Under the pieces are notes generated by a model, which was not told the DNA's origin, ran no database searches, and saw only the letters and a program-made list of their open reading frames with translations. A stretch of 64,000 nucleotides of DNA from the NCBI GenBank assembly GCA_964016885.1, contig OZ024742.1, positions 137,330,001 to 137,394,000 of the forward strand, written 5' to 3'. Positions 14,837 through 64,000 of the stretch are shown here, piece by piece (position 1 is the stretch's first letter; every line of letters starts with the position of its first letter). Made by a program: the position numbers and the translations under genes. This stretch comes from Eledone cirrhosa. Lineage: Eukaryota.

Positions 14837-14888
<52 letters not shown>

Positions 14889-14892
<4 letters not shown>

Positions 14893-15084: not shown

Positions 15085-15114
<30 letters not shown>

Positions 15115-16670: not shown

Positions 16671-16699
16671 GGGTATTTACATTGTACATTTTACCATTC

Positions 16700-16811: not shown

Positions 16812-16858
16812 CACGGAATAAATTACCTTTTTATGATCTCTACCTGTTATTATTCATT

Positions 16859-16894
<36 letters not shown>

Positions 16895-18399
16895 CATGGT
16901 ATCGTATATATATATAAAGCTAGTCCATAGAATCATTAGATAAAATATATACAATATTTCTTCTCTCAATCAGAGTTGAAAGAGAAAGAGAACGAAAAGA
17001 TACTCTGACGCTTATAAATCAGGTCAAATTTGTTGATTATTTCCACTTAGCCACCAGTTGGGATTTGAAATGGAGGCATCCCCTAAATTTTCTGCTCTTT
17101 TAGTTAGAATAAATATGGTTAGGAGATAATAAACCATGTAATATCCTAAATTTCTCACACAGTGAGAGACGGCATTTCTTGGTACCGTTGTTTTAATGAC
17201 TGTATATTTCACATACCTCCCATTGTGGGATACTTTAATCCTCCAATTTCCAGACTGTTTTCGCCAGGGCTGTACATATATACACTTATATATATATATA
17301 TATGTGAGTGTATATATGTATATGTATAATTATATGTATTTGTATGAATTTCTTTCCTGGAATGTCAGCGTGTGGATGTACTTACAACATGTGTAAATAA
17401 TCTCCCGTTGCCTGGAAAACCTCCGAAAAAAATATACTAATTGAATGTGATGATTTGATAAACGACAAAACTATCAAGATTATTACCAATCTCACAGGTT
17501 TGAAGTTGATGTTGTTGAGGATGACATCAACGTTACATAAAAACTAAAGCCTAACCTAACCCTTATAATCGTTATTATTCTTATGACACACTATTCCTCA
17601 TCATCACCATATTCACCGTCATTCCCTTTCCAATCATCACTACCACCCCAATCTCCTCTACAACTACTACTATAATGACCACAACCACCACTCCCACCGG
17701 TAGGACCAGCACCAGCACCATCCCCCTCCTCACCACTATCAACTTCGCCGGACTTATTATCATCAGCAGCATCACCATTGCCCCAACAACATTGGCATCA
17801 TCATCATCATCATCATCATCTTATTCATTATCATCCTCATCTCCGGGCATCATTGTTTTTTTCTTTATCATAATCGGCCTCAACATCACCATCTGTTTCC
17901 AATTTGATATATAGAATATGAGAAAAATACGCACATATGGAAGCTTTTGTGAAAATGCTTCTTTTAGTCTTACATTCATGAACGCATTTATGTATGCATA
18001 TATTTATACATGTGCGTTTATGAAGTACGTTTGTATGAATGTAGATGTGTATGTATGTATTCATGTATATATGTATGCATGTATGTGTGTATTCATATAT
18101 ATATATATGTATGTATGTATGCATGTGTGTATTTATATATGATTCTATGTATTACAATTGACAGCATCCAGACAACAAAATCAACAAAAATGTTAAGCTC
18201 TTGTTATGCATTGCCAGGCGCCCGAGTAAACATAACTTTTGTCTTGCTGAAGTTAATTTTTAAACAAAAACCTTGCATGGTGAACAAAGAGATACATTAG
18301 AAACTGCATATCTGCTTCTGAATGCAAGGTCAAAGTCAGTAGCATAAAAGAGATCACCAACCATGGATACAACGGGGCAAATTAAATAGCTTCTCAGTA

Positions 18400-19754: not shown

Positions 19755-22700
19755 TTACAGACACATACTCGGAGTAGGCCCATTCACTCGGACCATTCTT
19801 GCCTCTCTCACGCATCTTTCAACAAAAAGCTGGGAAGAGAGCACCTCCCTTTCTACCCTGATTTTCCTTTTCAAATGAAATTTAAAAAAGTTAATCAGGG
19901 CATCACGGAAGAGGTAAGTGCTCGTCTTCAGCCCTTTCAAACATGTCCACCATACTATCTCTTTCGCCATGGCCACCAGACAGATGAAAACTGCCTGCCC
20001 TTCCTGGCTAAAGGAAGAGGGCGGGGCAATCCTCACGATGGACTCAGCAGATAGCTGGTGTTCGACATAAACCCACAAGTCAACAATGCTCGGACACTGG
20101 ACATTGGACATTGGACACTGGACGAGTGCGTGCAGGACGGTTTCGTCGCCCTGCGCGCATCTCGGACATACCCGGCAGACGGCACCTCCATGTCTGTAGA
20201 GTTTATCCCGAACTGGCAAAGCTCCTCGGTAGCACTGCCAGGCCAGGGATTTCTGGAAGTTGTCCATAGGCCTCGGCCCGAAAGTACTCCCGAAGAGATT
20301 GGCTAGTTGATTTTCGTCGACGCCTAGAGTTTCCCCAAGTTAGTCGTCGCTCTTCCCCTCCACTAAACCTCTATAGAACGCCAAGGTGGAGTTTCCACCG
20401 AACACATTGCCCGATTGGTCGAGGGCTGTGAGCTCCTGAAGACATTCCAGTCTCCAAGCGCTCCCTCTCGGTCTTCGCTTGACCCAGGACTGCAGCTCCG
20501 TCAAGGAGACGAGCTGGGGAAAGACGCGTCTAGCAAACGGCAACCACACCTGATCACTGTCGAGGAAGAGCTGGAGATGTCATTGCCTCAGCGCGTGTCT
20601 GCGCATCATCAGCCACGGCATTCCCAGCCCTCAACGTAGAGGGTGTTGACAGCAGATGGACCGCCTGACCATCGGAGCGCGTCCCTTCCACAAAAAGTGA
20701 AAGAGCAAATTCTCCAGCGCAGTCAGGCGGGGCTTAAGACAAGGTACGACAGTCAGGCGGTAGTAGATGACGGACGCGATATACGCGTTAGCCACCTCCG
20801 CTCGACCTTTCCGGGATAGCTTCTTCTCGGCCCATTTCTGGGTGAGAGAAACCACCCTGCTCGTCACCTCGTCCCAGTTTTTGTCCGTCTGGAGATCCGG
20901 ACTGAACCAGACCCCGATCAATTTAACCGTTCCGTCCGTCCAGCGCCCGACGACGCTGTTGGACGGCATGGACCTGCCTCTCCAGGTGCCGAGCTGCAGG
21001 CCCACTGACTTTTCCTGGTTGATCATTGCTCCTGTCACCGCTTCGTATTCTCTTAGTGTAGTGCCGATCGCCTCGATGTGTTTGGCGTTCGACACCACTA
21101 CGGTGATATCGTCCGCATATGCTGACACGGATCTTCCGCATCCTAGATGCCCCTCAACGTCTCCAGTTTGTGCAGTAATTGCTCGAGAGTCAATACGTAC
21201 AAGAGGGACGAGGGGGACATCCTTGTCGGACTGAGCGCATGATGTTGAACGATTACGAAAGGTGACCGTTCACTCTCACCACAGAGCAGATGTCGCTGTG
21301 AATGGCAGCGATCCAGCCTCTGAAGACGTGCCCAAAGCCAGCCACCATCAGGACTCCGCTAGGTAACGAGGTAACGATGGTCGACCCTATCGAAAGCTTT
21401 CGACTGATCTAAATTGATCAAGGACTCACCCGTGCCATGTTCCCTAGCTACCCTCTCTACGATGTATCGCATGAGGTGGAGGTTGTTGTGGATGGATCTG
21501 TCGGGAAGGGCGCATGTCTGCGCCTCTCCCACCAGACCACCAACGACAAGCGCGAACTTCTTTGCTAGCACCTTGGCCAAAATCTTGAACTCTGTGTTTA
21601 GCAAAGTTATGGGCCTAAAATTATCTATATTATCCCCATTGTTCGGATACTTTCTCAGCAGCGCTACAGCTCCTCGGCTCACAGAGCTGGGAATCCTCCC
21701 GTTCTGTGGCCAGTTGCAGTAGACGTCCGCCAAGAGGCCTCCGAACAAGACTGGCATCTGTACGTAAAGTTCATAGGGCAGACCATCCAAACCAGACGAT
21801 TTACCCCTTGTGCAGCCAGTCATTGCCTCCCGTACTTCAGCGGCTGTTATCGGCTTTTGGCAACACTCCGCCTCAGTGGCCGAGAGCCGCCGCAGTCCGT
21901 CGAGGTAGACACTAAAGTCCATCCCTCGATCCGGCCCGCCACTGCCCCCGAACAACTGAACGAAGTGTTGCTGAAAAGCTTCACACATTTGCCCGGGATC
22001 GAGTAGCATGCGCCCGTCGTGGTCCACCAAAGACCGGATCTTGGCTTTGTTACCACGACGAGCCTCCGCCACTCGGGCCCATTGAACGGCTTTCGTTCCC
22101 TCATGTCTGAGAGCACGCACCCTAGCTCTGACAACGCAGCCTTCGTGCTTTGCATTGAAGAATTGGTCAAGGGCCAATTTCGCCGCAAGTACGTCGGTCG
22201 CGATGCCTTTGCTAAGCGCCTCGTCTAATTTTCGAACTAATACGCCCTCTGCTCTATTCTTCTCTATTGCTAAAGCCTTACTAAGCCTAATGGACTCTAT
22301 TCTAATTGCTCTTTTCAGAGCAAACCACCACTTGTTGTTGACGATGGCCCCCATCAAAGCCCGCATCACTAGTTCGCTAATCCGGTCTCTGTAGGCCTTG
22401 CGCGCTGGTAAGGACGCGTTTAGCTTCGATTAGCCGGCCTCTCGTCTATGAAGCCTATCTAAGTCAAGCACACAGCTCACAAATTTGTGGTATGTGTAGC
22501 TGACTATCTTTAATTGTGGACAGCCTATGCTAGACCTTTCTATTTCCCTACAAAATACTCTATCAAGATATGATCTGGATGAAATATGCGATTTGTCCAA
22601 GTCCACATTGGTACATTCGGGAAATCCAATCGGTACCTGTCAGACAGTTCAAAATGCCTGAGCAGGTTGGTGAGGCTCTTGCACCCTCCTCCCCTATCCG

Positions 22701-23122
22701 CTAATCCCACACAGTCCCAGCGTGCATCTAAGATCCCGTTCCAGTCGCCCACTAACACTAAAGAGCGGGACGTTCCAAGAAAGGTCTCCAGACGCCATTA
22801 ACCTGAAAGCTTGTCCGTCTCCGCTGGTCACGTCCAGCACCACCAACTTACCTTCTGGGTTCAGGAAGATGGCCCGTATGGCGAGATCCAAACCTCTCCG
22901 AAAAAGCACAGCAACTCCTCCCCCCGATCCCAGACGGCTGGGAGATGCGTACACATCGTAGCCGCCGAAGACCGATGCGAAGGCCCGTGCTTCGGAGATT
23001 CTGGTCTCGCTGATGGCCACTACATCTATGTTTACTGACCTGAGGTCGTTGAGCAAGTGGCCCTGCTTCCATGACGACCACAAGCCACGCGCATTTATGC
23101 TGCCTATTCTGAGTGAGGTCAT
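19755..23122 (-). pseudogene. Tx1-like ORF2 (APE endonuclease, RT, zf-RVT), frameshifted
   Basis: IGSINARGL...AISET; LVGDWN; SGLDGLPYE...FRPITLLNTEFKILAK...LDQSKAFDRVDH; AYADD; CPRC...ETVLHALVQC. Confidence 0.9.
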
Positions 23123-23156
23123 GTTGAAATGGAGTGGAAAAGATAGGAAAGACCAC

Positions 23157-25193
23157 TTACCTTACTTCTCGTAGAGGAAGGATGGTTTGTCTATCCTTTT
23201 CACTGCTTGTGGCCTCCTCAGGAAGGATGTCCTTATAAATCCTCCTGGAGAGTGTTTGTCGGAAGTCTCCGATGTCTTTGGGGAATTTTTGTTTTAGTGA
23301 CGTGTACGTTTTCTGTGTGATGCGAGTGATTTGTATGTGTGGAGGTGGTGTGAACTTTTGGGTTGTTGTGTAGTCTTTTTCTGTGATGCTGGTGTTGTGT
23401 TGCACGTAGTGTAATAATTGTTTGTTGTTCAAATTTAATTGTTTCTACTTTAGGCACAAGGCCAGCAAATTACCCAGTGCATTACTGGTACTTTATTTTA
23501 TCGACCCCGTAAGGATGAAAGGCAAATGCTGTCTAGTGTGTATCGTTTTGGTTGTTTTGTTTTGTTTTGCGTTTGTTGTGGGTTTGTTTCTGTTACGCAT
23601 TTTGGTGACTTTTTTGGTGTTGGTGATATAGGTGTTGGGGTTAATGATGGTGATGGTGTTGGTGTTTGTGGTGATGGGGTTGGTGATGCTGGTGTGGATG
23701 GTGGCATATCTGTCCTAACTTTTTGGTTTGATAATTTATTTGTTTCCCTCTGTATTATGTTTTTGGCGGGGGAAGGAAGAGAATTTTTTCTTTTTTGATT
23801 TCTTTTTTTCTTTTTTCCTGATACCGTTTCCCACTCCTCGTCGTCACAATCTGTCTCCAGTTGCGATAAGCCGAGGAGTGGAAATTCCTTCACAGGCGTT
23901 GGTTTTGGTTGTGGCGTGGTGAATGTTGTAGCCGCTGGTGCTAGTTCTGGCGCGTTGGGTGGTGGTGGTGTTGGTTTTGCTACTGTTGCTGGGGTTGTTG
24001 GTATTCCTGTTGCTTCTGTTGTTGCTGTTACAGTTGCTTCTGTTGTTGCTGCTACAGTTGTTGCTGCCATCTCTACTGCTGGTGGTGTTGATGGTTGAGT
24101 CACTGAGGTGGGTAAGAGAGGTGGCCTCAACCTTTTAGCCTGAGGGCAGAAAGCCCTTAGGTGGGTTCCTTCAACACAAACGACACACCTAGGCCTTCTG
24201 CCCTCGACGATTACGATGAGGTGGCTGCCGTCAGTGAGGTCTATTACCTCTGGGATCTCCTCAATGCTTTTATGGTCCGCTTGGATTAGGAGCTCCATCC
24301 CAGATCCGGACCAGTTCTCCTGCTTTTCTTTCGCTATTTCGATTATCTTGGTGTTGGCCTCGATGCCGGCGAGGACGGCAGCCATTAGCCAGGGAATTTC
24401 GATGGCCGGTGGAACGTGGGTCACCCTGATCTTCACAAGTCTCTGGCCACAATAGCTTGGGACGTGTGTGAAGTCGTCACTTCTTAATGGGGCCATGGAG
24501 TGTTCTCTGGCCTCCTGTGGTGTTTCAAAGAACACGTCCACGGTTCCATATTTCTGCCCTCGTCTAATGTGGGGTTTTTTTGCCCACACATGTCCCAAAG
24601 CTTCTTGGATTTGAGACTCGGATGCCCGTTCCACTCGGCGCGATTTTATGTTAATTGTCCACGGTGCATAGGCGACGATGCTCCATTTTATTAGGTGGGG
24701 GTGAGGCTGACCCTGTACCCATCTTTCTTTACCATTTTTTGGCTTCTTCTAATTCCTCCTGAGTTACCTGAAATGCTTCGCACTGTTTTGCTACTCTGGC
24801 AAAATTCAGGGTGGTTTTCTTAATGTCATTGTTGCTGTTGTTGTTATCGTTATTTTTGTTATTATTAATTTTAGTTTCAGTTGTGGTGGTGGTGGCGTCA
24901 GTTGTGTTCGGTGTGGAAGAGTTCATTTTGGTTGAATTCATTTCGATATCACGAGTTACTTTATTTTTTTCTTGTGTTTCTGTTGTCGCTGTGGTGGTGG
25001 TGGTGGTGGTGGGGAGAGGGGCTTTAACACCTGCAGTCATTTGTAATGGCGGGAAATGAATGTCTGTCTGAGACAAATTAAAAATATTGCTACTGCTTAT
25101 ATTTTTAGTGTTGGCAAACCTATTAATATTTACAATGGTGGTCTCGGTGTGAGGTGTTAGTTTGTGAGGAAGGAGTGATTTTGAGTCGTCCAT
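23157..25193 (-). pseudogene. Tx1-like ORF1 (gag-like, CCHC zinc knuckle, Thr/Pro-rich), split
   Basis: ORFs 24729-25193, 23498-24634 (CVVCVEGTHLRAFC = CX2CX4HX4C; WETVSGKKKKR) and 23157-23432. Confidence 0.75.
23440..23526 (-). mobile_element. SINE 3' fragment nested in the Tx1 ORF1 region
   Basis: aggcacaaggccagcaaattacccagtgcattactggtactttattttatcgaccccgtaaggatgaaaggcaa, near-identical to 32294-32368. Confidence 0.8.
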
Positions 25194-26009: not shown

Positions 26010-29000
26010 CTACAGCGTGATAATGCCACACAAGAGCCACGTGGAGTGACGCAACCACCGGAGGCGGTGAATCCACCGGTGGTTATGTAACCATACATTC
26101 GCCAATCCTCGATAAGAGTGTTTAAATGTCGAACCTAAACAGTTCGAATAACGGTGAAATGGAGACTAGGACGTCATGTGACAGACTCTCACCCACCAGG
26201 TGCTCCCTGGCTCAGCAGCAGGGCCCTGGCCGTCAACCAAATACTGCTGGTGTCGGAGGAAGAAGAAGAAGGAAAGGGACCAGAACCAACTGTACGAAAT
26301 AATTGAATAGAACTGTTATGCAATGTTACCTGAAAAGTAACCCCAAGGAGAGGGGCTATAGGAAACGGATGCATAACATCTGGAACGAGATTGGTCTATT
26401 TAAATTAGATGAACAAAAATTGGCCGGGCAGGCTCGGGTAATAAGAACTAATGGGTGGATAAGCGAGCTGGAACTGGAGGAACTGAGCAGAGAGATTAAC
26501 TTGGAGATGGAGGGTGGAGTATGCCAGGCAAACGAGCCAGTGGGAAATGAATGTGAAGAGGTCGAGAGAACGGAGGAACCACCCGAAGCAGAAAATGATC
26601 TCAATACTGAGATAAATAATACCTGGAACAGAGATACGGCCCATTGAGGAGATGAATGCTGACGGGCTAGGACATGATTTGGTTGATATCCTAAATTTAG
26701 TGGTAGATGAATTGAACAATGATAGTGGGAGACCTATGAACCTAAGATTTGTAGACAGGAAAAAGTTAAAACAATCAACAGCTAAGGTAAACAAAGTCAT
26801 CCCATACCTTGAGGCGAGGAGCCTTCACCAGTGCAACAATATCCTCAAAGCAACAGCAAATACGGTGAGGAAACTACTTGGTATAAAAGCGAGAGGAAAC
26901 AAAGGACAAGAAAGAGCAGAGCCTTGGTGGAAGAAACAACTGAGTGGTCAAATCAGGGAAATGAGAAATGACATTGGAAAGCTTGAGTCCCTACTGAATG
27001 GGACACTAAAAAACATAGACACTAAAAATAAACTGGAAATAAAGTACAAAACTAGGAGGAAAAAGCTAAATATTATCATAGAGGAACTGAAGCAACGAAT
27101 TGTAGCAAAGAGTGCAAAAATCAGGCGATACGAGAACAGAGTCAGTCAGTATAAACAGAACCGCATGTTCGACAACAACCAGAAGATGCTGTTTGGACAG
27201 CTTGAAGGGAAAGAAAGAGGCAACGACTTGATCCCTGAGGCGGAACAAACTAAAACATTCTGGAGAGGAATATGATAGCAGGATGTTAGACATAATGACC
27301 AGGCAGTGTGGATTGAGACAGTACAGAAGGAGATCAGTGACCAGGCACACCAACAAACTGATTTGAGTATCACAGTTGAAACTCTTAAGGGGCAGGCCAA
27401 AAATCTAACCAACTGGAAATCACCAGGCCCAGATGGTGTGCAGGGGTATTGGATTAAAAATATAACATCCCTCCACCCGAAACTGACAACCATGTTCAAT
27501 GACTGTTTGATGTCAGGTGAGGTACCAGAGTGGTTGACAAAAGGTACCACAGTTCTGATAATGAAAGACCGAATCAAGGGTAATGATGTTACCAACTATA
27601 AACCTATCACATGTCTGTCCGTAATGTGGAAACTGTTGACGAGTATTGTGTCTGAGGAAATCTACCATCACCTCCACACAAACAACTTGTTACCGGACGA
27701 ACAGAAAGGATGCCGAAAGAAGTCACGTGGTACAAAGGACCAGTTACTTATTGATAAGATGGTAATGGGGAATTGCAAGAGGAGACACACTGATCTTGCC
27801 ATGGGATGGATAGACTACAGAAAGGCATTTGACATGGTGCCTCATTCTTGGATCACCAAAAGCCTGGAGATCTTCGAGGTGGCAGATAACATCAGACAGT
27901 TGTTGGGCAAAAGTATGAGGTCCTGGGAAACAGAGTTGACATCAACTGGAGAATCCTTGAGAAGCGTGAAGATCAAGAGAGGTATCTTCCAGGGAGATAG
28001 CCTGTCCCCTCTGTTGTTTGTCCTTGTCCTGATGCCCCTGACCAGTGTACTGCGAAAAGTGAGAACAGGATACAGGTTGGGAAAGTGAGGGCTTACCATC
28101 AATCACCTTCTCTTCATGGACGATCTTAAGCTCTTCGGGAAGAGTGAGAAGGAGTTGGATGTGCTTGTTGACACTGTCCGTATTTTCAGCAGTGATATAT
28201 GTATGCAATTTGGTATTAGTAAGTGTGGAGTCATTGTGATGAGGAGGGGTAGGTTGAGCAGAAGTAACGGAATCCAGATACCAACAGGTGAGATGATAAA
28301 GGAAATTGACTCTGAGGAAGGATACAATATTTGGGCGTTCTGGAGGCTGATGGCATAAAGAACAAAAAAATGAAGGAATTGTTAAGAACTGAATACATTC
28401 GGAGAATAAGGAGCGTATTGAAGTCACATCTGAACAGTAGGAATGCCATAAGCGCAGTAAATTCCCGAGCTGTGTCTATTATTAGGTACAGTGTGGGAAT
28501 TCTGAGATGGAATGTTGCCTAACAAAAAGAAATGGATAGGAAGACTAGGAAGCTATTGACTATCTACAACATATTCCACAAGAGGAGCGATGTCGATAGA
28601 CTCTACTTAAGGAGATCTGAGGGTGGAAGAGGTCTTATCAGCATAGAGGACTGTGTTCAGATGGAGAAAAACAACCTACATAAATACGTGACTGATAGTA
28701 AGGAGCCAATGCTCATAACTGTACTGAAGGAGGGGAAAATAGGCCAGGGGATGTCCAAGGAGGAAATAACATCAAGGTGAAAGAGCAGCCTTCAGGAAAA
28801 ATCCCTTCATAGTACCTTCTTTGAGAAAACTGAATTTAGAGATCCACAGACATGGAACTGGTTGAAAAGAGGAGACCTTAAAAAGGCTACAGAAGGAATG
28901 TTAATGGCTGCGCAGGAGCAGGCCCTCAAAACGAAGTGGTTGAAACACCACATTTACAAGGAGGAGGCTAGCCCACTGTGCAGGATCTGTGGAGAGAGAG

Positions 29001-29625
29001 AGAGGAGACTGTGGCTCACCTTGTATCCGAGTGTAAACACCTAGCCCAGACCCACTATAAGGGCTGGGGACATGATGTGATGGGCAGGACGATCCACTGG
29101 CACCTCTGCAAAGTAAACAATTTACCCCATTCTGAGAAGTGGTATGAGCATAAGCCGGAGTCGGTGATAGAGAACGACCAGGTGAAGGTGCTGTGGGATT
29201 TTAGGATACAGACGGACAAGAAACTGGAACACAATAGACCTGGCCTGGTGGTTGTGGACAAAGAAAAAGATCGTGCCTGATTGTGGATGTGGCCTGCCCA
29301 TTCGACACGAGAGTGCAAGAGGAGAGGGAGAAAATTAACCGATACCAAGTCTTAAAGTGGGAGGTAAAAAAGATTTGGAACTTCCATGAAGTCAAAGTGA
29401 TCCCCATTGTCATAAGCGCACTAGGGACTATCTCCAAAAGTTTCCAGGGATGGTTAAAGAAAATCGGCCCCTTCACGCTTTTTGGAACGCTTCAAAAGGC
29501 ATGCTTGCTGGGGACAGCAAGAACCCTCCGATACGTCCTGAATATCTGAGGCTGCAGGTAGTGGCTTGAAATTCATTCCAACAAACCTTCCAGTTAACTA
29601 ACATCAATGACTGAGACTCAAGGTG
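26010..29625 (+). mobile_element. Dong/R4-clade non-LTR retrotransposon, near full length, degenerate
   Basis: Single ORF in pieces: RGYRKRMHNIW; WKSPGPDG...YKPITCL...WIDYRKAFD...GIFQGDSLSP; FMDD; CRIC..ETVAHLVSEC...HD; RLE-like NRPG(D)LVV...DVACP; ends at (TAA)n; 5' boundary approximate. Confidence 0.88.
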
Positions 29626-29632
29626 TAATAAC

Positions 29633-29660
<28 letters not shown>

Positions 29661-29664
<4 letters not shown>

Positions 29665-32265
29665 CATTGGAAAGCTTGAGTCCCTACTGATGGGACACTA
29701 CAAAACATAGACACTAAAAATAGACTGGAAGTAAAGTACAAAACTAGGCGGAAAAAGCTAAATATTATCATAGAGGAACTGAAGCAACGAATTGTAGCAA
29801 AGAGTGCAAAGATTAGGCGATATGAGAGCAGTGTCAGTCAGTATAGACAAAACCACATGTTTGACAACAACCAGAAGATGTTGTTTGGACTGCTTGAAGG
29901 GAAAGAAAGGGGCGACGACTTCATCCCTGAGGCGGAACAGACTAAGACATTCTGGAGAGGAATATGGGAGAAGGATGTTAAACACAATGATCAGGCAGTG
30001 TGGATTGAGACAGTACAAAAGGAGATTAGTGAACAGGCACACCAACAAACTGATTTGAGTATCACAGTTGAAACTCTTAAGGGGCAGGCCAAAAAACTAA
30101 CCAACTGGAAATCACCAGGCCCAGATGGTGTGCATGGGTATTGGATTAAAAATATAACATCCCTCCACCCGAAACTGACAACGATGTTCAATGACTGCTT
30201 GATGTCAGGTGAGGTACCAGAGTGGTTGACAAAAGGTACCACAGTTCTGGTAATGAAAGACCGAATCAAGGGTAATGATGTTACCAACTATAGACCTATC
30301 ATATGTCTGTCCGTAATGTGGAAACTATTAACAAGCATTGTGTCTGAGGAAATCTACCATCACCTCCACATAAACAACTTGTTATCGGACAAACAGAAAG
30401 GATGCCGAAAGAAGTCCCGTAGCACAAAGGACCAGTTACTTATTGATAAGATGGTAATGAGGAATTGCAAGAGGAGAGACACTGGTCTTGCCATGGGATG
30501 GATAGACTACAAAAAGGCATTCGACATGTTACTTCATGCTTGGGGAACCAAAATCCTAGAGATCTTCAAGGTGGCAGATAACATCAGACAGATGTTGAGC
30601 AAAAGTATGAAGTCCTGGAAAACAGAGTTAACATCGGGTGGAGAGTACATGGGAGGCGTGAAGATCAAAAGAGGTATCTTCCAGGCAGATAGTTTGTCCC
30701 CTCTGTTATTTGTCCTTTCCCTAATAACCCTGACCATTATACTGCGAAAAGTGAGAGCAGGATATAAGTTGGGAAATGGAGAGCTTACCATCAATCACCT
30801 CCTCTTCATGGACGATCTTAAGCCCTTCGGGAAGAGTGAGGAGTTGGATGTATTTGTTGGCACTGTCCGTATTTTCAGCAATGATATATGTATGCTATTT
30901 GGTATTAAAAAGTGTGGAGTCCTAGTGATGAAGCGGGTTAAATTGAGCAGATGCAACGGAATCCAGGTACCAACAGATGAGATGATAAAGGAAATTGACA
31001 CTGAAGAAGGATACAAATATTTAGGTGTTCGGGAGGCAGATGACATCAAGAACAAAAAATGAAGGAATCGATAAGATCTGAGTACATTCGGAGAGTTAGG
31101 AGCGTATTAAAATCACATCTGAACAGTTGGAATGACATAAGTGCAGTAAATCCCCGAGCTGTGTCTATTATTATGTACAGTGCGGGAATTCTGAGATGGA
31201 ATGTTGCTGAACAAAAAGAAATGGATAGGAATACTAGGAAGCTATTGACTATCTACAACATGTTCCACAAGAGGAGTGATGTCGATAGACTCTACTTAAA
31301 GAGATCTGAAGGTGGAAGAGGTGTTATCAGCATAGAGGACTGTGTTCAGATGGATAAAAACAACCTACACAAATACGTGACTGATAGTAAGGAGCCAATG
31401 CTCAGAATTGTACTGAAGGAGAGGACAATAGACCAGGGGATGTCCAAGGAGGAAATGACAAAAAGGGGGAAGAGCAACATCATGAAAAATCCCTTCTTTG
31501 AGAAAACTGAATTTAGAGATCCACAGACATGGAACTGGATGAAAAGAGGACACCTTAAAAAGGCTACAGAATGAATGCTAATGGCTGCACAAGAACAGGA
31601 CCTCAAAACGAAGTGGGTGAAACACCATATTTACAAGGAGGAGGCTAGCCCACTGTGCCGGATCTGTGGAGAGAGAGAGGAAACTGTGGCTCACATTGTA
31701 TCCGAGTGTAAACACCTAGCCTAGACTCACTATAAAGGCTGGAGACATGATGTGATGGGAAGGGTGATCCACTGGCACCTATGCAAAGTAAACAATTTAC
31801 CACATAGAAAACGATCAGGTGAAGGTGCTGTGGGATTTTAGAATACAGACGGAGAAGAAACTGGAACATAACAGGCCTAACCTGGTGGTTTTGGACAAGT
31901 AAAAAAGATCGTGCCTGATTGTGGATGTAGCCTGCCCATTTGACACGAGAGTGCAAGAAAAGGAGAGGGAGAAAATTAACCGATACCAGGACTTAAAATG
32001 GGAGGTAAAAATGATTTGGAACTGCCATGAAGTCAGAGTCCTCCCGATTGTCATAGGCGCACTAGGTACTATCTAAAAGAGTTTCCAAGGATGGTTAAAG
32101 AAAATTAGTCTAGCCCCGCTTTTTGGAACACTTCAAAAGGCATGCTTGCTGGGAACAGCAAGAACCCTCCGATACGTCCTGAATATCTGAGGCTGCAGGT
32201 AGTGGCTTGATATCCATTTCAACAAACTTTCCAGTTAAATAACATCAATGACTGAGACTCAAAGA
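29661..32265 (+). mobile_element. Dong/R4-clade LINE, 5'-truncated second copy in tandem
   Basis: Colinear with 26968-29625; starts directly after the (TAA)n tail of copy 1; ends at (AAT)n. Confidence 0.9.
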
Positions 32266-32284
32266 ACAATAATAATAATAATTG

Positions 32285-32470
32285 TTTCTAGTTTAGGCAC
32301 AATGCCAGCAAATTACCCAGTGCATAACTGGTACTTTATTTTATCGACCCCGTAAGGATGAAAGGCAAGGTCAACCTCGGCGGGATTTGAACTCAGATCG
32401 TAAAGGGACGTAACTATGCTGGAAAGCATGGCGTCCGACACTCTACGGATACTGCCAATCCACCGTCCTC
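32285..32470 (-). mobile_element. tRNA-derived SINE, full length
   Basis: Minus strand ggattggcagtatccgtagagtgtcggac...gagttcaaatcccgccgaggttgaccttgcctttcatccttacggggtcgataaaataaagtaccag. Confidence 0.8.
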
Positions 32471-35987: not shown

Positions 35988-37976
<1,989 letters not shown>

Positions 37977-37978
<2 letters not shown>

Positions 37979-39806
37979 ACGAAGGAAATGTGGTAAGGAA
38001 CCAGGTGGACCATAACGCACCAAAGTACTCAATACTTGGGGTAGTAGAGTGGGTAATAGGAACAAGTAAGACCCCGACGGCTGTGCTCAAGCCGTTTCGA
38101 CGGCTAATTCTGTACTGAATGAAAATGTATTCTGGTATTTAAATAGCCGAGCTTATCAAGGGGTAATTCCATATATGGTCAAAGAGATAATCAACAGGAT
38201 TGGTCACATCACAAGTTAGTAGAAAATCTGTGATGGCAAATTGGTGGGGGAAGGGGTAGCTAAACCTGCCGGTAGGAGAAAAAGGGAGGGGGGTGGAGTA
38301 GACCCATTCATGCGTTGGTAGTGCCAGCTACAGCTGGGTGTGAGGTCAAAGAGGATACTGGGGAGGGGGAGGGGGAGGAGGTCGAAACGGTAAGTAGAAC
38401 AATGAGGGTAAAACTATAAAGGGTACTGAGAGAAAAAAAAAAAAATAAGCAAAGTCTGGTTACTAAGACTTAAGTCTCTCGCTATTGCTAGGCTAAAGAA
38501 ATACATAAATAAATAAATAAACAAATAAGTGAATAAAAGAATAGATAAATAAATTTTAAAAAAAAGTTTATATATATATATATAATGTAGAATGAAAAAA
38601 AAAAAATAATAATAATAATAGAAATAAACTAGGTGGGGCGGAAATAAAGGGACCCTTATACGAGGGGGGTGGGGGCCAGAATACTAAAGAGATTACCACG
38701 AAATATTAAAGGTTTCTACCCCAATCACAGGGCCAGCAACCACCCAGTGCAAGAAAGTAAAGTAGTACGAGAAAATAAATCAGGGTCCCGCAAACAAATA
38801 CTAGTGCTAACTCTAAGGGTAACGCCACGAAACAAAAAGTCTTATACAAGCTACATGAAAGATCGTACGAAGTAAAAGTAAAGAACGGAAAATTAATACA
38901 GGAACACCCCCCCCCCCCCAACAAAAAAAGGGAAAAAGAAGAAAGAAGGGGGGGGGGGGTTCCTGTATTAATTTTCCGTTCTTTACTTTTACTTCGTACG
39001 ATCTTTCATGTAGCTTGTATAAGACTTGTTGTTTCGTGGCGGTACCCTTAGAGTTTTTCGTACTAGTTTACTTTCTTGCACTGGGTGGTTGCTGGCCCTG
39101 TGATTGGGGTAGACACCTTTATTATTTCGTGGTAGTCTCTTTAGTATTCTGCCCCCCCCCCCCCCCTTGTTGACCCGTCACCGTACGATACACGCACTTA
39201 TACCTCGTATAAGAGTCCCTTTATTTCCGTCCCACCTAGTTTATTTCTATTATTATTATTTTTTTTTTTTAATCTACATTATATATATATATATATATAC
39301 TTTTTTTTAAATTTATTTATCTATTCTTTTATTCACTTATTTGTTTATTTATTTATTTATGTATTTCTTTAGCCTAGCAATAGCGAGAGACTTAAGTCTT
39401 AGTAACCAGACTTTGCTTATTGTTTTTTTCTCTCTCAGTACCTTTTATAGTTTTACCCTCATTGTTCTACTTACCGTTTCGACCTCCTCCCCCTCCCCCT
39501 CCCCAGTATCCTCTTTGACCTCACACCCAGCTGTAGCTGGCACTACCAACGCATGAATGGGTCTACTCCACCCCCTCCCTTTTTCTCCTACCGGCAGGTT
39601 TAGCTACCCCTTCCCCCACCAATTTGCCATCACAGATTTACTACTAACTTGTGATGTGACCAATCCTGGTGATTATCTCTTTGACCATATATGGAATTAC
39701 CCCTTGATAAGCTCGGCTATTTAAATACCAGAATAAATTTTCATTCAGTACAGAATTAGCCGTCGAAACGGCTTGAGCTCAGCCGTCGGGGTCTTACTTG
39801 TTCCTA
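37977..39806. mobile_element. Family D long form: 1.8-kb palindrome in (TA)n
   Basis: Arms of about 860 nt (38056-38920 vs 38948-39806) with high identity; 27-nt purine-rich spacer between C-run and G-run; left arm carries the 80-nt tail. Confidence 0.9.
39699..39792 (+). ncRNA. Type I hammerhead, U3:A8 core, long stem II loop (family D)
   Basis: acccc TTGATAA gctcggcta...tagccgtc GAAAC ggct tgagctc agcc GTC ggggt; inverted copy near 38071-38164. Confidence 0.78.
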
Positions 39807-39901
39807 TATATATATATATATATATATATTACGTTATTATAGTTAAGATTCAAGCAGCATCATCAATAATAACAACAATATATACAATATATATATATTT
39901 T

Positions 39902-45574: not shown

Positions 45575-46401
45575 TCTGTGGTTTTTATCACATATGGTTG
45601 GTCTTTGAATGTTACTTGTTTTATATGGAAAAAAGTGGCTCGAAACGCCAGGTTTTTAGAGAAGTAATTTGATTGGTTAGTCAATAATTATAATAAATTT
45701 CGCGCCAGTTCGCGTTACAAAGTTCTTCAAACAAGAGAGGGGGGTGGCTCAGGTTGTTTTTTCATATAGGAGTGTTTGAATTTCCTTTTACTTAAAAAAA
45801 AGGAGGCTCACGAAGGCTTTTTTTTAAATAAACGTAATTTGATTGGTTATAAATGAAATTATGGCTGTCACGTGAACAAGTTTTCATTAAAATTCGCGCC
45901 CGTATTTGGAAATTTATTCTGTAGCCTTTTTAGAGAATTTTATGACAAGCAAAAGATAATGGTCAAGAGAAATGGGATGGGAGAATTGTTCTGGTTCAGT
46001 GAATATGGTTAGTTCGCTGGGGTGTCAGAATTCAGATTTTCTATTGAAATAAAGAAAGTAAAGATATGTATGTTTATTTGTGTGCTTGTTTGAGGAACTT
46101 TGAAACGCGAACTGGCGCGAAATTTATTATAATTATTGACCAACCAATGAAATTACTTCTCTAAAAACCTGGCGTTTCGAGCCACTTTTATCCATATAAA
46201 ACAAGTAACATTCAAAGACCAACCAGATGTGAGAAAAACCACAGAACTTCCACCTCAACTCTACTTTTAAAAGCAGAAGAAGTGCGAAACCGGTAAAGGA
46301 ATCAAATAAATATATATATTTAAAAAAAATAAGACTCCAGTTGCATTTTCGATTTCATCTTTTTTTCTTTATACTTTCTTTTGTAAAAGAACCTCACTTT
46401 C

Positions 46402-46681: not shown

Positions 46682-46717
<36 letters not shown>

Positions 46718-46891
46718 GCATATTTATAAAATTTTCGCTCTACATGGCTGAATACAATAAATGTAATCTGAGTTTTGCGAATATTAATAATAACATTCGA
46801 TTCGTTTGCAATTATGCAAACAAGCCTCAATTTTTAGCCATGTCAGTAAAATGAACACTTCGTTCTTGCTCTTGTGTTGGCATTCGAATAG

Positions 46892-46937
46892 AACTGCAGA
46901 CATAAATGTTTCTGGGTATCACCCTTCATCAGTACAG
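46892..46937 (-). ncRNA. Type I hammerhead ribozyme (family L)
   Basis: Minus strand: ctgta CTGATGA agggtgataccca GAAAC atttat GTC tgcagtt. Confidence 0.8.
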
Positions 46938-47468
46938 CTCACTGTCCACCTGCCAACCTGTCAGGGCTAGTGAAAATATATGCTATTTTCAAAAATACAA
47001 AGTGGCTGATCGGCCTCATTTGCATATTAGCAGACTGGCTGATCAGTCAGATCTTCATATTAGCAGATCCACTGATCATCCAGATTTGCATATCAGCAGA
47101 CTGGCCAGTCAGTTTCCTGTATACAAGCGATAAATGGCCGGCTTTGCCAAATTCAAATAAAAAAGAAAATGTTCGCTTTACATGGCTGAATACAATAAAT
47201 GTAATCTGAGTTTTTCGAATATTAATAATAACGTTTGATTCGTTTGCAATAACGCAAACAAGCCTCAATTTTATAGCCATGTCAGTAGAATGAACCCTCC
47301 ATACAGGAAACTGACTGGCCAGTCTGCTGATATGCAAATCTGGCTTATCAGTGGATCTGCTAATATGCAGATCTGACTGATCAGCTAGACTGCTAATATG
47401 CAAATCAGGCCGATCAGTCACCGTGTATTTTTGAAAATAGCATATGACAGTTTGGCAGGTGAACAGTC

Positions 47469-47516
47469 AACTGTACTGATGAAGGGGGATACCCAGAAAC
47501 ATTAGTGTCTGCAGTT
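47469..47516 (+). ncRNA. Type I hammerhead ribozyme (family L)
   Basis: aactgta CTGATGA agggggataccca GAAAC attagt GTC tgcagtt. Confidence 0.85.
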
Positions 47517-47669
47517 CTGTTCGCATGCCAACACAAGAGCAACAAGAATGAAGGGTTCATTCTACAGACATGGCTGTAAAATTGAGGATTGTTTGCATAA
47601 TTTCAAATGAATAGAATGTTATTATTAAAATTCGAAAAACTCAGATTACATTTATATATATATATATAT

Positions 47670-47833
47670 CAACACCACGCTAAAAATTTAGTTTAGACCA
47701 GAAATAGCCGCTGAAACGGCTTGAGCTCTGCCGTCGGAGTCCTGTCTCTTTTCCTATTACTCACTCTACTACCCAAAGTATCGAGTACTCTAGTGAGTTA
47801 TGGTCCAGCTGTTTCCTTACCACACTTCCTTCG

Positions 47834-47835
<2 letters not shown>
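47670..47835 (+). mobile_element. Family D diverged single-arm copy
   Basis: tagccgctGAAACggcttgagctctgccGTCggagt...ttccttaccacacttccttcgtta(ta)n. Confidence 0.75.
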
Positions 47836-49389: not shown

Positions 49390-51260
49390 TTCATTTGATG
49401 TCTGAGGCTGGTGTTGGAAATTGTTGCGCGGCTTTTGCTGAACTTGCTGGTTCCATAATGGGAGTATATCCTTTCCACACATACACATGCCTGTCTGAAG
49501 TTAAGTACAGTGTTGTGGTATATCCAAGGCCAGTGGTTTGAAAATGGCTACCAATGCATTTCACCGTTTGGAGAAAAATGTCATGCCAACTCTCCTGTTC
49601 AGGGATATCGCAGGATTTTGCAATATGTCTCACGATTTATGTAGACACATGTGACATCTACAACTCCGGATGAGTATCGGTTTGGTCTGTGTAGGGTGCT
49701 CCATTTTATATTAGGGATTTTTATCTGTTGATCACGGATGCTCCAACTGAAACTGGATATGAAGTTGAAATGACCTCTTCTCATGCTATGTTGTGATGTG
49801 AGTGTGGTTCTCTGGGCCATAGAGTCTGAGAAACAGAGTGCATTTAGAGAATACTAGCAGGTTTCAGCAGTTACAGGTTGGTGTGCTCGTGTGTATGTAT
49901 GTGTGTGTGCATGTGAGTGAGTGCGTGTATGTGTTCGTGCGTCTTGTGCATTATGTGATTAGACGATTTTTATTTATACCTGGCGATAACGGAAGCGAGG
50001 TTATTTACGTAAGAGTATCTATCATTAACATCCTCAAAGTTCAATAGTTTTTGGTAGCTATAGTCATATTGCAAGTGGCTTCTAATTAGGGACAGGAAGT
50101 TCTTAGCTATATTCGAGGATACACCAAGACCGAAGGGACAATTAGATACATTTGTCTTTCTCTTTCTAGCTATTTTTAGTACGTTCGTGGTTCCTTCAAT
50201 TCCATTATCATTAGTGTCTCATTTTAATGGTGTAATGCAGCACTGTTGAGGATCTCTCTGTCAGTTGAGACCTTAGACATTATTTTGTTCATACGGTTCA
50301 CTAAGATTTTAACTATAGTTGGGGATGGTGCTGAGTTCCTATATATATGTTTCATCATCATCATACGTCACAGAGAATTACTGTTAAAAAAGTTTGATGT
50401 TCAGAGTGATATCGAGAAAATCTACTTTGTTTAAGTTAATGATAACAGCGATGTGAAAACCAAAAGTTTTCTGAAATTATCCGTTCCATGACTGTTCACG
50501 ATATTTCGAAGATATCGTCTCTATTCGGGGCTGAGAAATAAGAATGCATTCGTTTTTGAGAATGTCTACGATAACCACATTCCCGTCGTAGGATCTCATG
50601 GATACATTAATATTTATCAATATTGACCCAAATTGATAATGAAACCCTGGTAATTTCCTAGTGTTCCCGATTATCGTGATATCGAAGTCACTGATCTTAA
50701 ACAATTCATACCAGAAGCATTGGTTTTTCAGAAATGGGCGTTTCGATATCAAGATAATGCAACTACTATCTAAATTACTTAATTCTCAGTATTATGAAAC
50801 CAGTAGCTTACGGTTGATGGAGTGCCATTGGACGAGATTTCTCGCCTTTCTGATTTCAGAGTTGATGCTGTCGAGATTTTTCTAATTAGTTCTTCCCACC
50901 TCACTCTTAGCCCTCTAAATGATCCTGATTTCAGGGCTGGGGAAATGTTAGGGTCTTCAGACTTAAGAGTGACATAGGGAGTAGGATCGTGATTAATCAA
51001 CTGACTTGGGTTTCTATTTTGAGGAAAGTGGCTAGAACCTTTTCCCTGTGTTCCTCTAATCGCACATTGTAGCCTTGTGCTCTACTTTATTTTCATGATA
51101 ATATGTGTCATGCGCTATTGTGTGTGCCTATGCGAAGATTCAACGAGGACAAACAATATAGGTGGACGATAAAATACAAGGAATATATATTTTAGTTTAC
51201 TGCTTGATGCTGTAGCCAAAACATCTTAACGTATCAGACATTAGTCCTCCATCAGAAGCT
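49390..51260 (-). pseudogene. Highly decayed Naiad-like PLE (RT and GIY-YIG remnants)
   Basis: Minus strand fragments PYVTLKSEDPN, LENLDSINSEIRKARNLVQW, VSMRSYDG (cf. VTMGSYDG), WSIRDQQIKIPNIKWSTL...RYSSG; degenerate HHR-like text near 51210-51260. Confidence 0.55.
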
Positions 51261-52118: not shown

Positions 52119-52413
52119 ACGTAACAGAATAACAGGAATAAATATTTTGCAACAATAACAAAGATATTTAATCCGTAAAGCCTTTTGGCAGGGTGCTTAG
52201 TGTGTCTTCGGTTTTGGTCATACGTACATTGCTATTATACGATAACCTTTTAGTAGAGTGTGACTGGTAATCATAGAGAAGTGACTTTATCTAGAAAGGC
52301 TACAATATATCTAATTGCCCACACTCTTATACGTGTACACTAAACTCAATTTGATCATGACATATGAATACATATATGTATGTATGCATATATATATATA
52401 TTTTTTTTTTTGT

Positions 52414-53725
52414 TTGAGTATATGTTGGTTGTATACCAACACCTCAGTATGCAGGCTGGAGCACTCGACGAAGTGCGCAGGTTGGTTTGGTTACTCCGGA
52501 GTAATGTAAAATAAAGTAAAATAAAAAGTCAAATGTTTAAAATTTAGCTTCGTTTATTACAGCTATATATATTTCGGTGACAGCCATCTTTGGCTGTGAC
52601 CTCTTCAGGCAGTCCGAATTAGTGTGGTATAGACAAGTACATATGTTGTTGAGGTGTATAATTTTGTCAATACTCTGATATGCCCAGTTCCTGGTTGGGT
52701 TGTTATTTCACTGACGAACTGGAATCATATGAATTCAAACAAACGAATTTCAGTGTCAAAGGGCCTCTTCTCCTCTCATTGGTCAGTTGTTAGAACATTC
52801 CTCATTCAAAAGTCTATAGAAGTTCGTTCTGAGGCAAGCCAATCTGTAATTGTTGTTCTTGTTATTGTTAGGTATATCTGACCTCAATTCTTGTGTTGGT
52901 AGTGTTGTTATTGCTGGAGTTAGCTTAAAAAATTGATAAAGTGGTAGAAGGAACAAGGTGGTAAAGGAACAAAATAACAAAAAAATGTCAAACTTCCCAT
53001 TGGTCAGTTTTGAGAGCATTCCTCAGTCAGAAGTCTATAGAAATTCTTTCTGGGGTGAGGCTCCCTGTAGTGTTTGTGCTTGCTATTGCAAGCACAAACA
53101 CCAATTAACCAGTAAATCACAGCGGTCAAAACCCAGATGGTCACCAAAGGAGAATATCCATCCATCTGCGTTTACACATCAAATGCAAATCTGTGAATGA
53201 CACGAACTACGTGTTGCATTTTATAAAAAATACAGACATCATCCCAGTGGCGTGAATAGGATTATCGACAGCTAGAAATAGCAGCCGAGTCCATGATAAA
53301 GACAGGTACACATGTTGTTGAAGTGTGTTTTACTCCGTCAATAAATCGATATGTCCAGCTCCTGGATGTGTTGTTATTCCGCCGAGGAACTAGAATCAAA
53401 TGGTTCCAGTTCCTCGGAGGAATAACAACACACCCAGGAGCTGGACATATCGATGTATTGATGGTGTAAAACACACTTCAACAACATGTGTACCTGTCAT
53501 TTCCACACCAATTCGGACTGCCTGAAGAGGTCACAGCCAATGATGGCTGTCACCGAAATATATATATAGCAATAATCTTTAATTTATAATAAACGAAGCC
53601 AAATTTTACATATTTGTCTTAATTATTTTACATTGCTCCGGAGTAAACAAACCAGCCTGCGTACTTCGTCGAGTGCTCCACTCTGCTTACTGAGGGGTCG
53701 GGGAACAACCAACATATACTCAAAA
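52414..53725. mobile_element. Family N HHR fold-back element with nested palindrome
   Basis: Arms 52414-52735 vs 53392-53725; additional palindrome 53301-53498; HHR in both arms. Confidence 0.8.
53519..53571 (+). ncRNA. Type I hammerhead with (UA)n stem III (family N)
   Basis: tgc CTGAAGA ggtcacagcca atga tggctgtcacc GAAA tatatata TA gca; inverted copy at 52562-52611. Confidence 0.75.
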
Positions 53726-61239: not shown

Positions 61240-62150
61240 AAAAGCCACTCTCATCTGCCTACCATCGATAGCTTTAGGTGGTCATCTAGATAGCTGACTA
61301 CGTTCCCGTCTTCAGAAGCTGGATCGCTGCAATGCATAGCGACATCTGATCTGTGGTCACAGTAAATAGACATCTTTCGGAACCTTTCCAGATGGCGCAC
61401 TCGTTCTCTCATGAGTATCCTTATTCACCCTTCTGTACTTATTGACGTTTGGGTCATTACTATGGGAGCTGGAGCTGTTGCAGAGCACTGCGCTCAATAG
61501 TGACGTCGGAAGCTAGATAGACGGACTGGTGAATTTGCTCGGGGTCTGGTTTGGACTAGATCTTCAGGTGGAGATGGACTGTGATGCGGTAACGAGCAGG
61601 TTGGCCATTTCCCCCTAGAAATGGTCCGAAAGGAATCTATCCATGAATGGTCAGGTGGTGGTGATGCACGTTTACATGGGATCCGTCATCTATTACCGCC
61701 TTACAGTCGACGAAATCGAATTAACCAGTCTGATCCGGAGCACTTTCTTTCCGAGGACTATGGCAAATTCCAGAAATCCTTGGCTCGGTATGTTTACCGG
61801 TAGCCACAGCCGGTTCGAAAGAAACTCTACAGGCTCGGAATTGCGGTCAGACGGACCTGTACGAGATGCGCACACAGCGACGATACCGTTCTGCACGCAC
61901 TCGTCCAATGTCTTTACATTTCTAACTTGTTCAGTTGTGCCGAACAGCTATTATCCCGTGCATGTTGGAATCCGCTATCACCTGAGTCTTTTGGCTGGGA
62001 AATGCAGGCAATGTTTCTATGTTTGGTAGCTGAAATGAAAGGGGTATTGTCGAGGTGGCTGAAAGGACTGAAGGCAGGCATTTTGTACTTCGCCAATACT
62101 TCATGAACATTTTCAACATCCACTTGGAAAGAAAAATGTTAGTGGAGAGG
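61240..62150 (+). pseudogene. Decayed, internally deleted Tx1-like LINE fragments related to 19506-25406
   Basis: VIYYRLTV; ggtctggtttggactagatcttcaggtggag; tccagaaatccttggctcgg; each matches the intact-like copy in reverse. Confidence 0.7.
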
Positions 62151-62471: not shown

Positions 62472-62680
62472 AGGCGGATTGGCAGTATCGTAGAGCGTCT
62501 AACAACATACTTTGTGACATAGAGGTACAGCCTTTTACTTACGGAGTTTATATCCCGCCGAGGTTAGCTTTGCTTTTCATCATTACAGGGTTAATAAAAT
62601 AAAGTACTAGTAATGCACTTGAGCCGATTTATTGAATTTCCCCGTGTTCCAAAATTGTTAGCCCTGTGCCTAAATCAGAA
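62472..62680 (+). mobile_element. tRNA-derived SINE
   Basis: ggcggattggcagtatcgtagagcgtc...tcccgccgaggttagctttgcttttcatcattacagggttaataaaataaagtac...ccctgtgcctaaa. Confidence 0.75.
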
Positions 62681-62705
62681 AATATTATTATTATTATTAT
62701 TATTG

Positions 62706-64000
62706 TTCTTTGAGTCTCAGTCATTGATGTTATTTAACTGGAAAGTTTGTTGAAATGAATATCAAGCCGCTACCTGCAGCCTCAGATATTCAGGACGTAT
62801 CGGAGGGTTCTTGCTGTTCCCAGCAAGCATGCCTTTTGAAGTGTTCCAAAAAGCGGGGCGGGGTCAATTTTCTTTAACCATCCTTGGAAACTCTTTGAGA
62901 TAGTACCTAGTGCGCCTATGACAATCGGGACCACTCTGACTTCAAGGCAGTTCCAAATCCTTTTTACCTCCCACTTTGAGTCCTGGTATCGGTTAATTTT
63001 CTCCTTCTCCTTTTCTTGCACTCTCGTGTCAAATGGGCAGGCTACATTTACAATCAGGCACGATCTTTTTTCCTTGTCCCAAACCACCAGGTCAGGCCAA
63101 TTGTGTTCTAATGTCTTGTCCGTTTGTATCCTAAAATCCCACAGCGCCTTCACCTGATCGTTTTCTATCACCGACTCTGGCTTATGCTCATACCACTTCT
63201 CAGAATGTGGTAAATTGTTTACTTTGCATAGATGCCAGTGCATCACCCTCCCTATCACATCATGTCTCCAGTCTTTATAGTGAGTCTGGGTTAGGTGTTT
63301 ACACTCGGATACAATTTGAGCCAGTCTCCTCTCTTTCTCTCCACAGATCCTACCTAGTGAGCAAGCCTCCTCCTTGTAAATATATTGTTTCACCAACTTC
63401 GTTTTGAGGGCCTGCTCTTGCGCAGCCATTAGCATTCCTTCTGTAGCCTTTTTAAGGTCTTCTCTTTGTAACCAGTTCCATGTCTGTGGATATCTAAATT
63501 CAGTTTTCCTAAAGAAGGTACTATGAAGGGATTTTTCATGGAGGTTGCTCTTCCTCATTGTTGATATTTCCTCCTTGGCCATCCCCCGGTCTATTGTCCC
63601 TCTCCTTCAGTACAATTCTGAGCATTGGCTCCTTACTATCAGTCACGTATTTGTGTAGGTTGTTTTTCTCCATCTGAACACAGTCCTCTATGCTGATAAG
63701 ACCTCTTCCACCTTCAGATCTCCTTAAGTAGAGTCTATCGACATCACTCCTCTTGTGGAACATGTTGTAGATAGTCAATAGCTTCCTAGTCTTCCTATCC
63801 ATTTCTTTTTGTTCAGCAACATTCCATCTCAGAATTCCCGCACTGTAACTAATAATAGACACAGCTCGATAAGTTACTGCACTTATGGCATTCCTACTGT
63901 TCAGATGTGACCTTAATACGCTACTGACTCTCCGAATGTATTCAGTTCTTATCAATTCCTTCATTTTTTTGTTCTTAATGTCATCAGCTTCCAGAACACC
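62706..64000 (-). mobile_element. Dong/R4-clade LINE, third copy (3' part), ending in (TAA)n
   Basis: ORFs 63536-63964 and 62782-63582 (WRHD, PDLVV, KACLLGTARTLRYVLNI); same 3' UTR as copies 1 and 2; (TTA)n at 62683-62705. Confidence 0.9.

Follow-up and report, generated by a model that had tools for sequence, protein, structure and literature searches.

A short hammerhead-bearing element in Eledone cirrhosa, very probably placed by a PLE-type insertion

Results

Anatomy of the insertion

The sequence analysed is a 64,000-nt window of the Eledone cirrhosa genome (assembly GCA_964016885.1, contig OZ024742.1, positions 137,330,001 to 137,394,000 of the forward strand), and all coordinates given here are positions within it. 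The window is animal-type DNA, mostly of 30–45% GC, with dense TA, CA and TACA microsatellites and decayed non-LTR reverse transcriptase frames. Between an (AT)n microsatellite at its left 3' end (46700–46727) and a (TA)n microsatellite at its right 3' end (47653–47669) lies a two-armed, inverted insertion, the only locus in the window of what we call family L. The insertion is bordered by (TA)n on both sides, with no definable target-site duplication, and thus occupies the AT-rich or microsatellite target that is a feature of PLE-type insertions. No further family L copies were found in the window by BLAST (E≤1e-3), and a search of the window with the L motif, allowing up to 3 mismatches, returned 2 matches, both inside L. 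Exact matches in bacterial and archaeal genomes numbered 0, which says little for an animal element.

The left arm (46728–47302, minus strand, 575 nt) comprises a 5'-truncated segment A', a segment B and a second segment A that carries a tail, a partial tandem or pLTR arrangement of 1.31 units. The outer segment A copy, which forms the 3' end of the insertion (46728–46859, minus strand), and the inner, 5'-truncated copy (47166–47302, minus strand) form a direct repeat (46728–46859 with 47166–47298; 133 columns, 92.5% identity, offset 438), in agreement with the first-pass annotation, which had described a minus-strand arm of about 1.3 units with this offset. In the 5' part of the repeat the offset is 439, and because the outer copy lacks a single base that is present in the other two, the parent repeat interval was probably 439 nt. 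The junction 47165/47166 is the only evidence for 438 nt as a repeating unit, since the window holds no third family L locus, and a one-off tandem of a longer PLE therefore matters as an option. A 29-nt tail (46728–46756, minus strand) is present at the left 3' end only; it recurs in the inner segment A copy and is therefore element sequence. Its length is 29 nt by homology, 1 nt below the quoted 30–40-bp range, or 39 nt if counted up to where (AT)4 first occurs. In the inner copy the tail is directly followed by a T-rich run with six consecutive T (47152–47165, minus strand), which could serve as an RNA polymerase III terminator and would then end a transcript immediately beyond the long 3' end.

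The right arm (47301–47655, plus strand, 0.84 unit) is an inverted, 5'-truncated copy without tail that abuts the left arm in a 5'-to-5' junction (47301–47302), at which up to 2 nt are assignable to either arm. It matches 47122–46757 of the left arm with 87.0% identity over 370 columns (E 4e-130), is 15 nt shorter at one place and 3 nt and 1 nt longer at two others, and does begin elsewhere in the unit than the left arm, as previously annotated. Both 3' ends point outward into (TA)n and lie 29 nt apart, with the left arm extending beyond the right. Segment B contains three 33-bp tandem repeats in the left arm (47003–47105, minus strand), predicted to fold back as a single long hairpin, and three in the right arm (47323–47418, plus strand). 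Two of these repeats in each arm include an octamer-like 8-mer, accounting for four of its eight occurrences in the window; octamers of this type belong to snRNA gene promoters. By its letters the 8-mer is a possible promoter element, and it was rejected as evidence of a promoter because all four copies derive from one repeat.

The three copies of segment A are almost equally diverged, with pairwise differences of 10 (inner versus outer), 12 and 12 (each versus the opposite arm) in 108 columns; changes private to one copy number 5, 5 and 7 (test of equality, p 0.79). The distance between the inner and the outer copy does not exceed that of either to the opposite arm, so the two were probably identical at insertion. 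Star-like divergence of this kind is what simultaneous insertion should leave: it speaks for a single event with near-identical templates and against a duplication that arose locally at a later time. A circle and a young tandem are not told apart by it, and it suits a circle equally.

We detected no coding function in family L. Among the profile matches at E≤10 over 1991 six-frame fragments there was no PLE coding remnant in L; two L frames gave 0 Pfam families, no protein relatives were found, and the best atlas value was 0.85, with low recognition. An open frame of 83 codons, running from the inner A copy into B, was rejected, as it is interrupted in the outer copy and without support. The RT plus GIY-YIG reading frame of an autonomous PLE is thus absent from L.

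Hammerhead ribozymes of family L

Each arm carries one type I hammerhead motif, at 46891–46940 on the minus strand in the left arm (core from 46932 (C3), C17 at 46899) and at 47469–47516 on the plus strand in the right arm (core from 47476 (C3), C17 at 47509), positions within the motif following hammerhead numbering. The left motif has a helix I of 8 bp (2 G-U), a helix II of 4 bp flanked by A/A and a near-palindromic helix III, and the right motif has a helix I of 7 bp plus an extension. Both contain the conserved core C3-A9, G12-A15.1 and U16.1-H17. At the base of helix II, A stands opposite A (or G opposite A) in both copies in place of G10.1-C11.1, and A precedes G12. The first-pass annotation had credited each unit with one intact hammerhead; type I cores are indeed present, one per arm, and are intact in their core letters only.

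A relaxed descriptor scan of the window found 12 hammerhead motifs against a mean of 0.87 in 30 shuffles, and the two L motifs are the only ones of the 12 with a helix I of at least 7 bp (shuffle mean 0.03, 30 shuffles). A stricter scan with a score cut did not show the L motifs. Rfam gave 0 matches at gathering score for the whole window and, for L locally, 18 matches at E≤10, none of which is a hammerhead or reaches gathering score and most of which are to microRNA and snoRNA models, so the type I hammerhead in the terminal repeat region is a descriptor-scan result without an Rfam match. Positions 10.1/11.1 are G-C in 4 of the 13 motifs listed for the window, the others being U-U, U-G, A-G, G-U and A-A.

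By predicted pair probabilities helix I is well formed (0.82 to 1.0 left, 0.21 to 1.0 right) and helix II forms (left 0.95, 0.96, 0.95 and 0.77; right 0.84–0.85), with helix III reaching 0.02 or less in the monomer. The 10-nt helix III region is self-complementary (8/10 pairs left; 10/10 right, including G-U) and by eye each copy is one substitution short of a perfect palindrome. From these predicted pairings the L hammerhead looks dimer-dependent. Self-pairing of helix III is the pattern of the dimer-acting ribozymes in the passages drawn on here from Cervera and de la Pena 2014 (PMC4209133), and PMC7229834 describes the axolotl U-U variant HHR_Amex2 as a weak cleaver on its own that performs better as a dimer. 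With one hammerhead per strand and none of the arms holding two, the ribozymes of this locus lie on opposite strands, so no dimer forms in cis and no 438-nt monomer is released from it; the ribozyme of this locus is probably silent.

Hammerhead elements across the window

Including L, eight inverted elements in the window have hammerhead-type cores recognised by scan or by eye (the other seven at 4734–5000, 7691–8180, 10775–11036, 11892–13076, 13138–13776, 15153–16867 and 52413–53724). Seven of them have at least one motif passing the scan and the eighth was judged by eye; 9 of the 12 scan hits fall inside these elements and the other 3 outside. The hammerhead points outward in all eight. Six combine an (AT)n end with an extension at the opposite end, another has (AT)n on both sides and the remaining one is without a tail. 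Outside L the extensions measure 61–142 nt, longer than the published 30–40 bp, and are proven element sequence by homology only at 7691 and 15153. A clear terminal partial tandem is found only in L among 9 inverted elements. In the five elements other than L and the 7691–8180/15153–16867 pair, one-sided extensions of 61–111 nt occur in three, and helix II frequently has a mismatch or wobble at its base.

The elements at 7691–8180 and 15153–16867 are independent copies of one family with both end points in common, and this family therefore has fixed 3' ends. The latter is a 5'-truncated PLE with a GIY-YIG-type endonuclease frame, an inverted terminal copy and, in its terminal region, a hammerhead with a long helix II insert; its sister insertion lacks an ORF and has a tail of about 140 nt. 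The endonuclease frame (15962–16600, minus strand, 212 codons, with a profile match reaching about 16674) had 2981 protein matches at E≤0.001 in an exhaustive search. In four long homologues a YRDD RT motif is accompanied by a Cys-rich linker and by GIY-YIG-like motifs, and these linker-bearing homologues are consistent with the Neptune/Nematis type as characterised in the relevant passages of Craig et al. 2021 (PMC8557442). For one long homologue, GIY-YIG or RVT families are found on some of the members of its atlas neighbours. The endonuclease is identified by motifs in the alignment, by the atlas and by the exhaustive search: Pfam gave 0 families for the frame, with one sub-threshold GIY-YIG match among 8 homologues, and a word-index search returned nothing (72 candidates). 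Between the stop codon of this PLE and its ribozyme lie about 490 nt of non-coding sequence. No DNA similarity links L to any of the seven other hammerhead elements, the ORF-bearing one among them, so no autonomous partner is identified in the window.

Further repeats occur near L and elsewhere. Broken PLE frame fragments lie on the minus strand at 49602–50476 (profile E 2e-8 for 49973–50218) and 17049–17273 (tblastn E 7e-6). Directly right of L, 47699–47835 belongs to a multi-copy family, with related sequence at 5216–5788, 7418–7634, 14837–15112 and 37954–39807, that includes palindromes and a 1.75-kb inverted pair, has a (TA)n end and a one-sided extension of about 77–90 nt, and carries a GAAA-type 3' half without a canonical 5' hammerhead core. 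The element at 45575–46245 has 161-nt terminal inverted repeats (96%) with 349 nt between them and no hammerhead core, and may be MITE-like or PLE-like by its sequence. Tandem and dispersed non-LTR retrotransposon copies, 85–90% identical, occupy 26967–32464 and 62473–64000 (RVT_1, E 1e-15). A broken LINE at 19755–24748 (minus strand) has a gag-like frame, an endonuclease-like start recognised by eye and an RVT_1 match (E 1e-8), with a fragment akin to it at about 61300–61900.

Arm ends and the form of the template

Relative to the ribozyme cleavage site, the 5' ends of the left and right arms lie at -403 and -223 and their 3' ends at +171 and +142. The circular permutation read into these differing starts by the first-pass annotation is not seen, the plus arm being colinear with and nested inside the minus arm, and differing 5' ends are what 5' truncation predicts. 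Ends at unrelated points of the unit can be sought in two arms only, and in these the 3' ends are 29 nt apart and the right arm is colinear and nested. This spacing matches a PLE tail between two fixed reverse-transcription start sites, as set out in parts of PMC8557442 and PMC11167929. Chance would place two 3' ends no more than 29 nt apart in 13% of cases, and L alone is therefore suggestive and no proof of fixed 3' ends. Taken together, the arm ends lean against circular permutation.

The partial second unit ends 35 nt short of the upstream cleavage site, so that the left arm does not extend to another ribozyme site. The left cDNA passes the ribozyme site just once, as an uncleaved linear transcript would allow. 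What survives of the previously proposed circular or concatemeric RNA template of about 438 nt is a template longer than one unit, and not the use of different starts as a sign of permutation. A circle is not required, and circle and linear multimer are indistinguishable at this locus. The junction reads suggested by the first-pass annotation would not tell the two apart, the sequence across the cleavage site being colinear in the genome.

Folded as a circle, the unit has a predicted energy of -127.0 kcal/mol (z -4.36 against 60 shuffles, 63% paired), and its antisense folds equally well (z -4.72), for which reason the z-score was rejected as evidence of circularity. Local hairpins account for the stability: z is -4.85 and -7.78 for the hairpin of the 33-bp repeats, -2.00 (left) and -5.00 (right) for the ribozyme domain and, in segment A, -4.85 in sense and -3.21 in antisense for the outer copy and -2.75 for the inner copy. 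Segment A is predicted to adopt a multi-branch fold in which the tail pairs with the start of the segment, closing the domain in both tail-bearing copies.

Origin of the insertion

The hallmarks of PLE insertions given in the passages of PMC8557442 considered here, namely a partial tandem, an adjacent inverted 5'-truncated copy, often a 30–40-bp tail at one end and a bias to microsatellites, are all present at L. The statements on (TA)n targeting in that source cover Naiad and, as a hypothesis, Neptune elements. With these hallmarks together at one locus, we regard a PLE-type insertion as very probable. The locus is an old, decayed and probably single insertion of a short, apparently non-coding, hammerhead-bearing element, most likely a new member of the non-autonomous PLE/retrozyme-type families.

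For the nature of the element and its template, the reading we favour, at somewhat less than an even chance, is that of a real short unit copied from a linear multimer by PLE machinery acting in trans. A PLE reverse transcriptase/GIY-YIG enzyme supplied in trans would cut both strands of a (TA)n tract, and reverse transcription would be primed by each cut end at a fixed site, one of a pair lying 142 and 171 nt downstream of the point at which the ribozyme cleaves. The RNA template would be longer than one unit of about 439 nt; most likely it came from a tandem donor, in which the ribozyme would probably function as a dimer, and was a linear transcript left uncleaved or cleaved only in part. 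The two cDNAs would stop at different points and be joined 5'-to-5', yielding a partial tandem and an inverted copy with a tail at one end. Parts of PMC11167929 report comparable behaviour for an anole PLE, whose protein cuts and extends both strands at AT-rich DNA in vitro, whose tail is bounded by two internal reverse-transcription start sites downstream of the ribozyme, and for which RNA in unprocessed form is the main substrate and cleavage is unnecessary for insertion.

The same machinery might instead have copied a circular RNA of about 439 nt, for 1.3 rounds on one side and 0.8 on the other, which would make L a true non-LTR retrozyme; a circular template copied for more than one unit is an already published model (PMC4209133 and PMC7229834, in the parts consulted). 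The near-equal distances among the three segment A copies, the stable circular fold of the unit, the self-complementary helix III region, as in dimer-acting retrozyme ribozymes, and the circles of 350–390 nt shown for mussel retrozymes in the relevant section of PMC7229834 are in keeping with such a template. We nevertheless consider it unlikely, as the antisense folds as significantly and the stability stems from local hairpins, permuted 3' ends are absent, the left arm stops 35 nt before a second ribozyme site, and the ribozyme lacks G10.1-C11.1 and leaves helix III unformed as a monomer, while the one PLE tested in vitro in the cited part of PMC11167929 inserts without cleavage. In its most specific form, a circular RNA reverse-transcribed by a Neptune-type PLE enzyme, this reading would have the locus keep two signatures at once, the copying of a short circle beyond one unit and the tail and inversion specific to PLEs, a combination that seems doubtful to us.

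Alternatively, 438 nt is no unit at all and L is a one-off head-to-tail pair of 5'-truncated ends (133 and 438 nt) of a longer autonomous PLE, arising either from a template jump or from a further insertion at its own end, with segment B representing the 3' non-coding region. There is a single A-to-B junction, to which the right arm, starting inside B, adds no confirmation; the 490-nt non-coding gap of the PLE in the window means that the 260 nt of B need not reach an ORF; and nicking in an element's own pLTR is allowed by the parts of PMC11167929 used here. Set against this are the lack of a longer parent in the window and of a coding remnant in L, and a star-like divergence that implies joint arrival and so counters a later second insertion, but not a template jump; on balance this origin has a low probability. 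Far less probable still is a rearrangement at the DNA level after insertion, that is, a local 133-nt duplication and a fold-back inversion of a single copy, which could be imagined in a region rich in microsatellites and full of inverted repeats. A later duplication should have left the duplicated pair clearly closer than the observed 10 versus 12 and 12 of 108 differences, both outer ends lie at element-defined points beside (TA)n, and the outward orientation holds in 8/8 elements. A local duplication together with colinearity of all copies with a longer linear parent had been named by the first-pass annotation as grounds against its own reading; the duplication is countered by the distances just given, and no longer parent is seen in the window.

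Significance and novelty

Family L extends a known class by one family; as it stands, the locus is a PLE-type relic like many others in an animal genome. In the part of the literature covered, by titles and abstract openings, no description of such families in cephalopods was found. The value of L is limited and is that of a test case: with its short unit and its clear tail and inversion, such a family would allow a genome-wide count that bears on the circular versus linear RNA origin of PLE tandems. If the circular RNA reading were true, L would be direct anatomical evidence for the mobilisation of retrozymes by PLE machinery, a link that the papers drawn on here argue from co-occurrence and pLTR similarity; the tail-closed 3' fold would then be an enzyme binding signal and the A-A base of helix II a working ribozyme variant.

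Comparison with known systems

The EN+ PLEs (Penelope/Poseidon, Neptune and Nematis), as presented in the parts of PMC8557442 used here, resemble L in their pLTR-forming partial tandem, inverted copy, one-end tail, microsatellite target without a definable TSD and type I hammerhead near the 3' end. Unlike them, L has no RT-EN reading frame, its entire repeat interval is only 438 nt, and it has no sequence link to the PLE in the window. Among the Chlamys PLEs of the same source, short non-autonomous elements such as MRC1 also form pLTRs and head-to-tail insertions; in contrast to L, these elements are green-algal, most of those covered there are without hammerheads, and they have 3' sequence in common with known autonomous partners, of which L has none in the window.

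The minimal and variant PLE hammerheads in the sections of PMC4209133 considered here share with L an extra base after A9 in one register and a small palindromic helix III, with dimer action and low activity expected; their motif pairs lie 100–700 bp apart on opposite strands, and the L pair is 544 bp apart. The L motifs differ from the minimal hammerheads in their long helix I (7–8 bp plus extension) and short helix II (3–4 bp), so that their helices are nearer to the canonical type, with G10.1-C11.1 not adjacent to G12.

The animal non-LTR retrozymes, according to the sections of Cervera and de la Pena 2020 (PMC7229834) drawn on here, match L in their non-coding unit of a few hundred nt with GC below 50%, their one type I hammerhead per unit, their palindromic helix III, their stable predicted fold (in L as stable in the antisense) and the presence of PLEs in the same genome, and helix II of the axolotl HHR_Amex2 likewise has a U-U mismatch at its base. 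With a repeat interval of 438–439 nt and one core, L is a short non-coding unit with a type I hammerhead, as retrozymes are. Its 438 nt exceed the retrozyme circles of about 170–400 nt found experimentally and fall inside the 150–450 bp range of retrozyme repeats in that source, in line with the size comparison of the first-pass annotation; the 2026 preprint of Li et al. (bioRxiv 10.64898/2026.07.22.740005) gives 51–972 bp for such repeats. L departs from retrozymes in its inverted, tail-bearing arrangement, and a circle of its unit is a predicted fold. Because the locus lacks the two tandem ribozymes by which Li et al., in the passages available, recognise an active retrozyme, we do not file it as one. 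The family may still be one, and the same passages argue that animal retrozymes are non-autonomous PLE derivatives.
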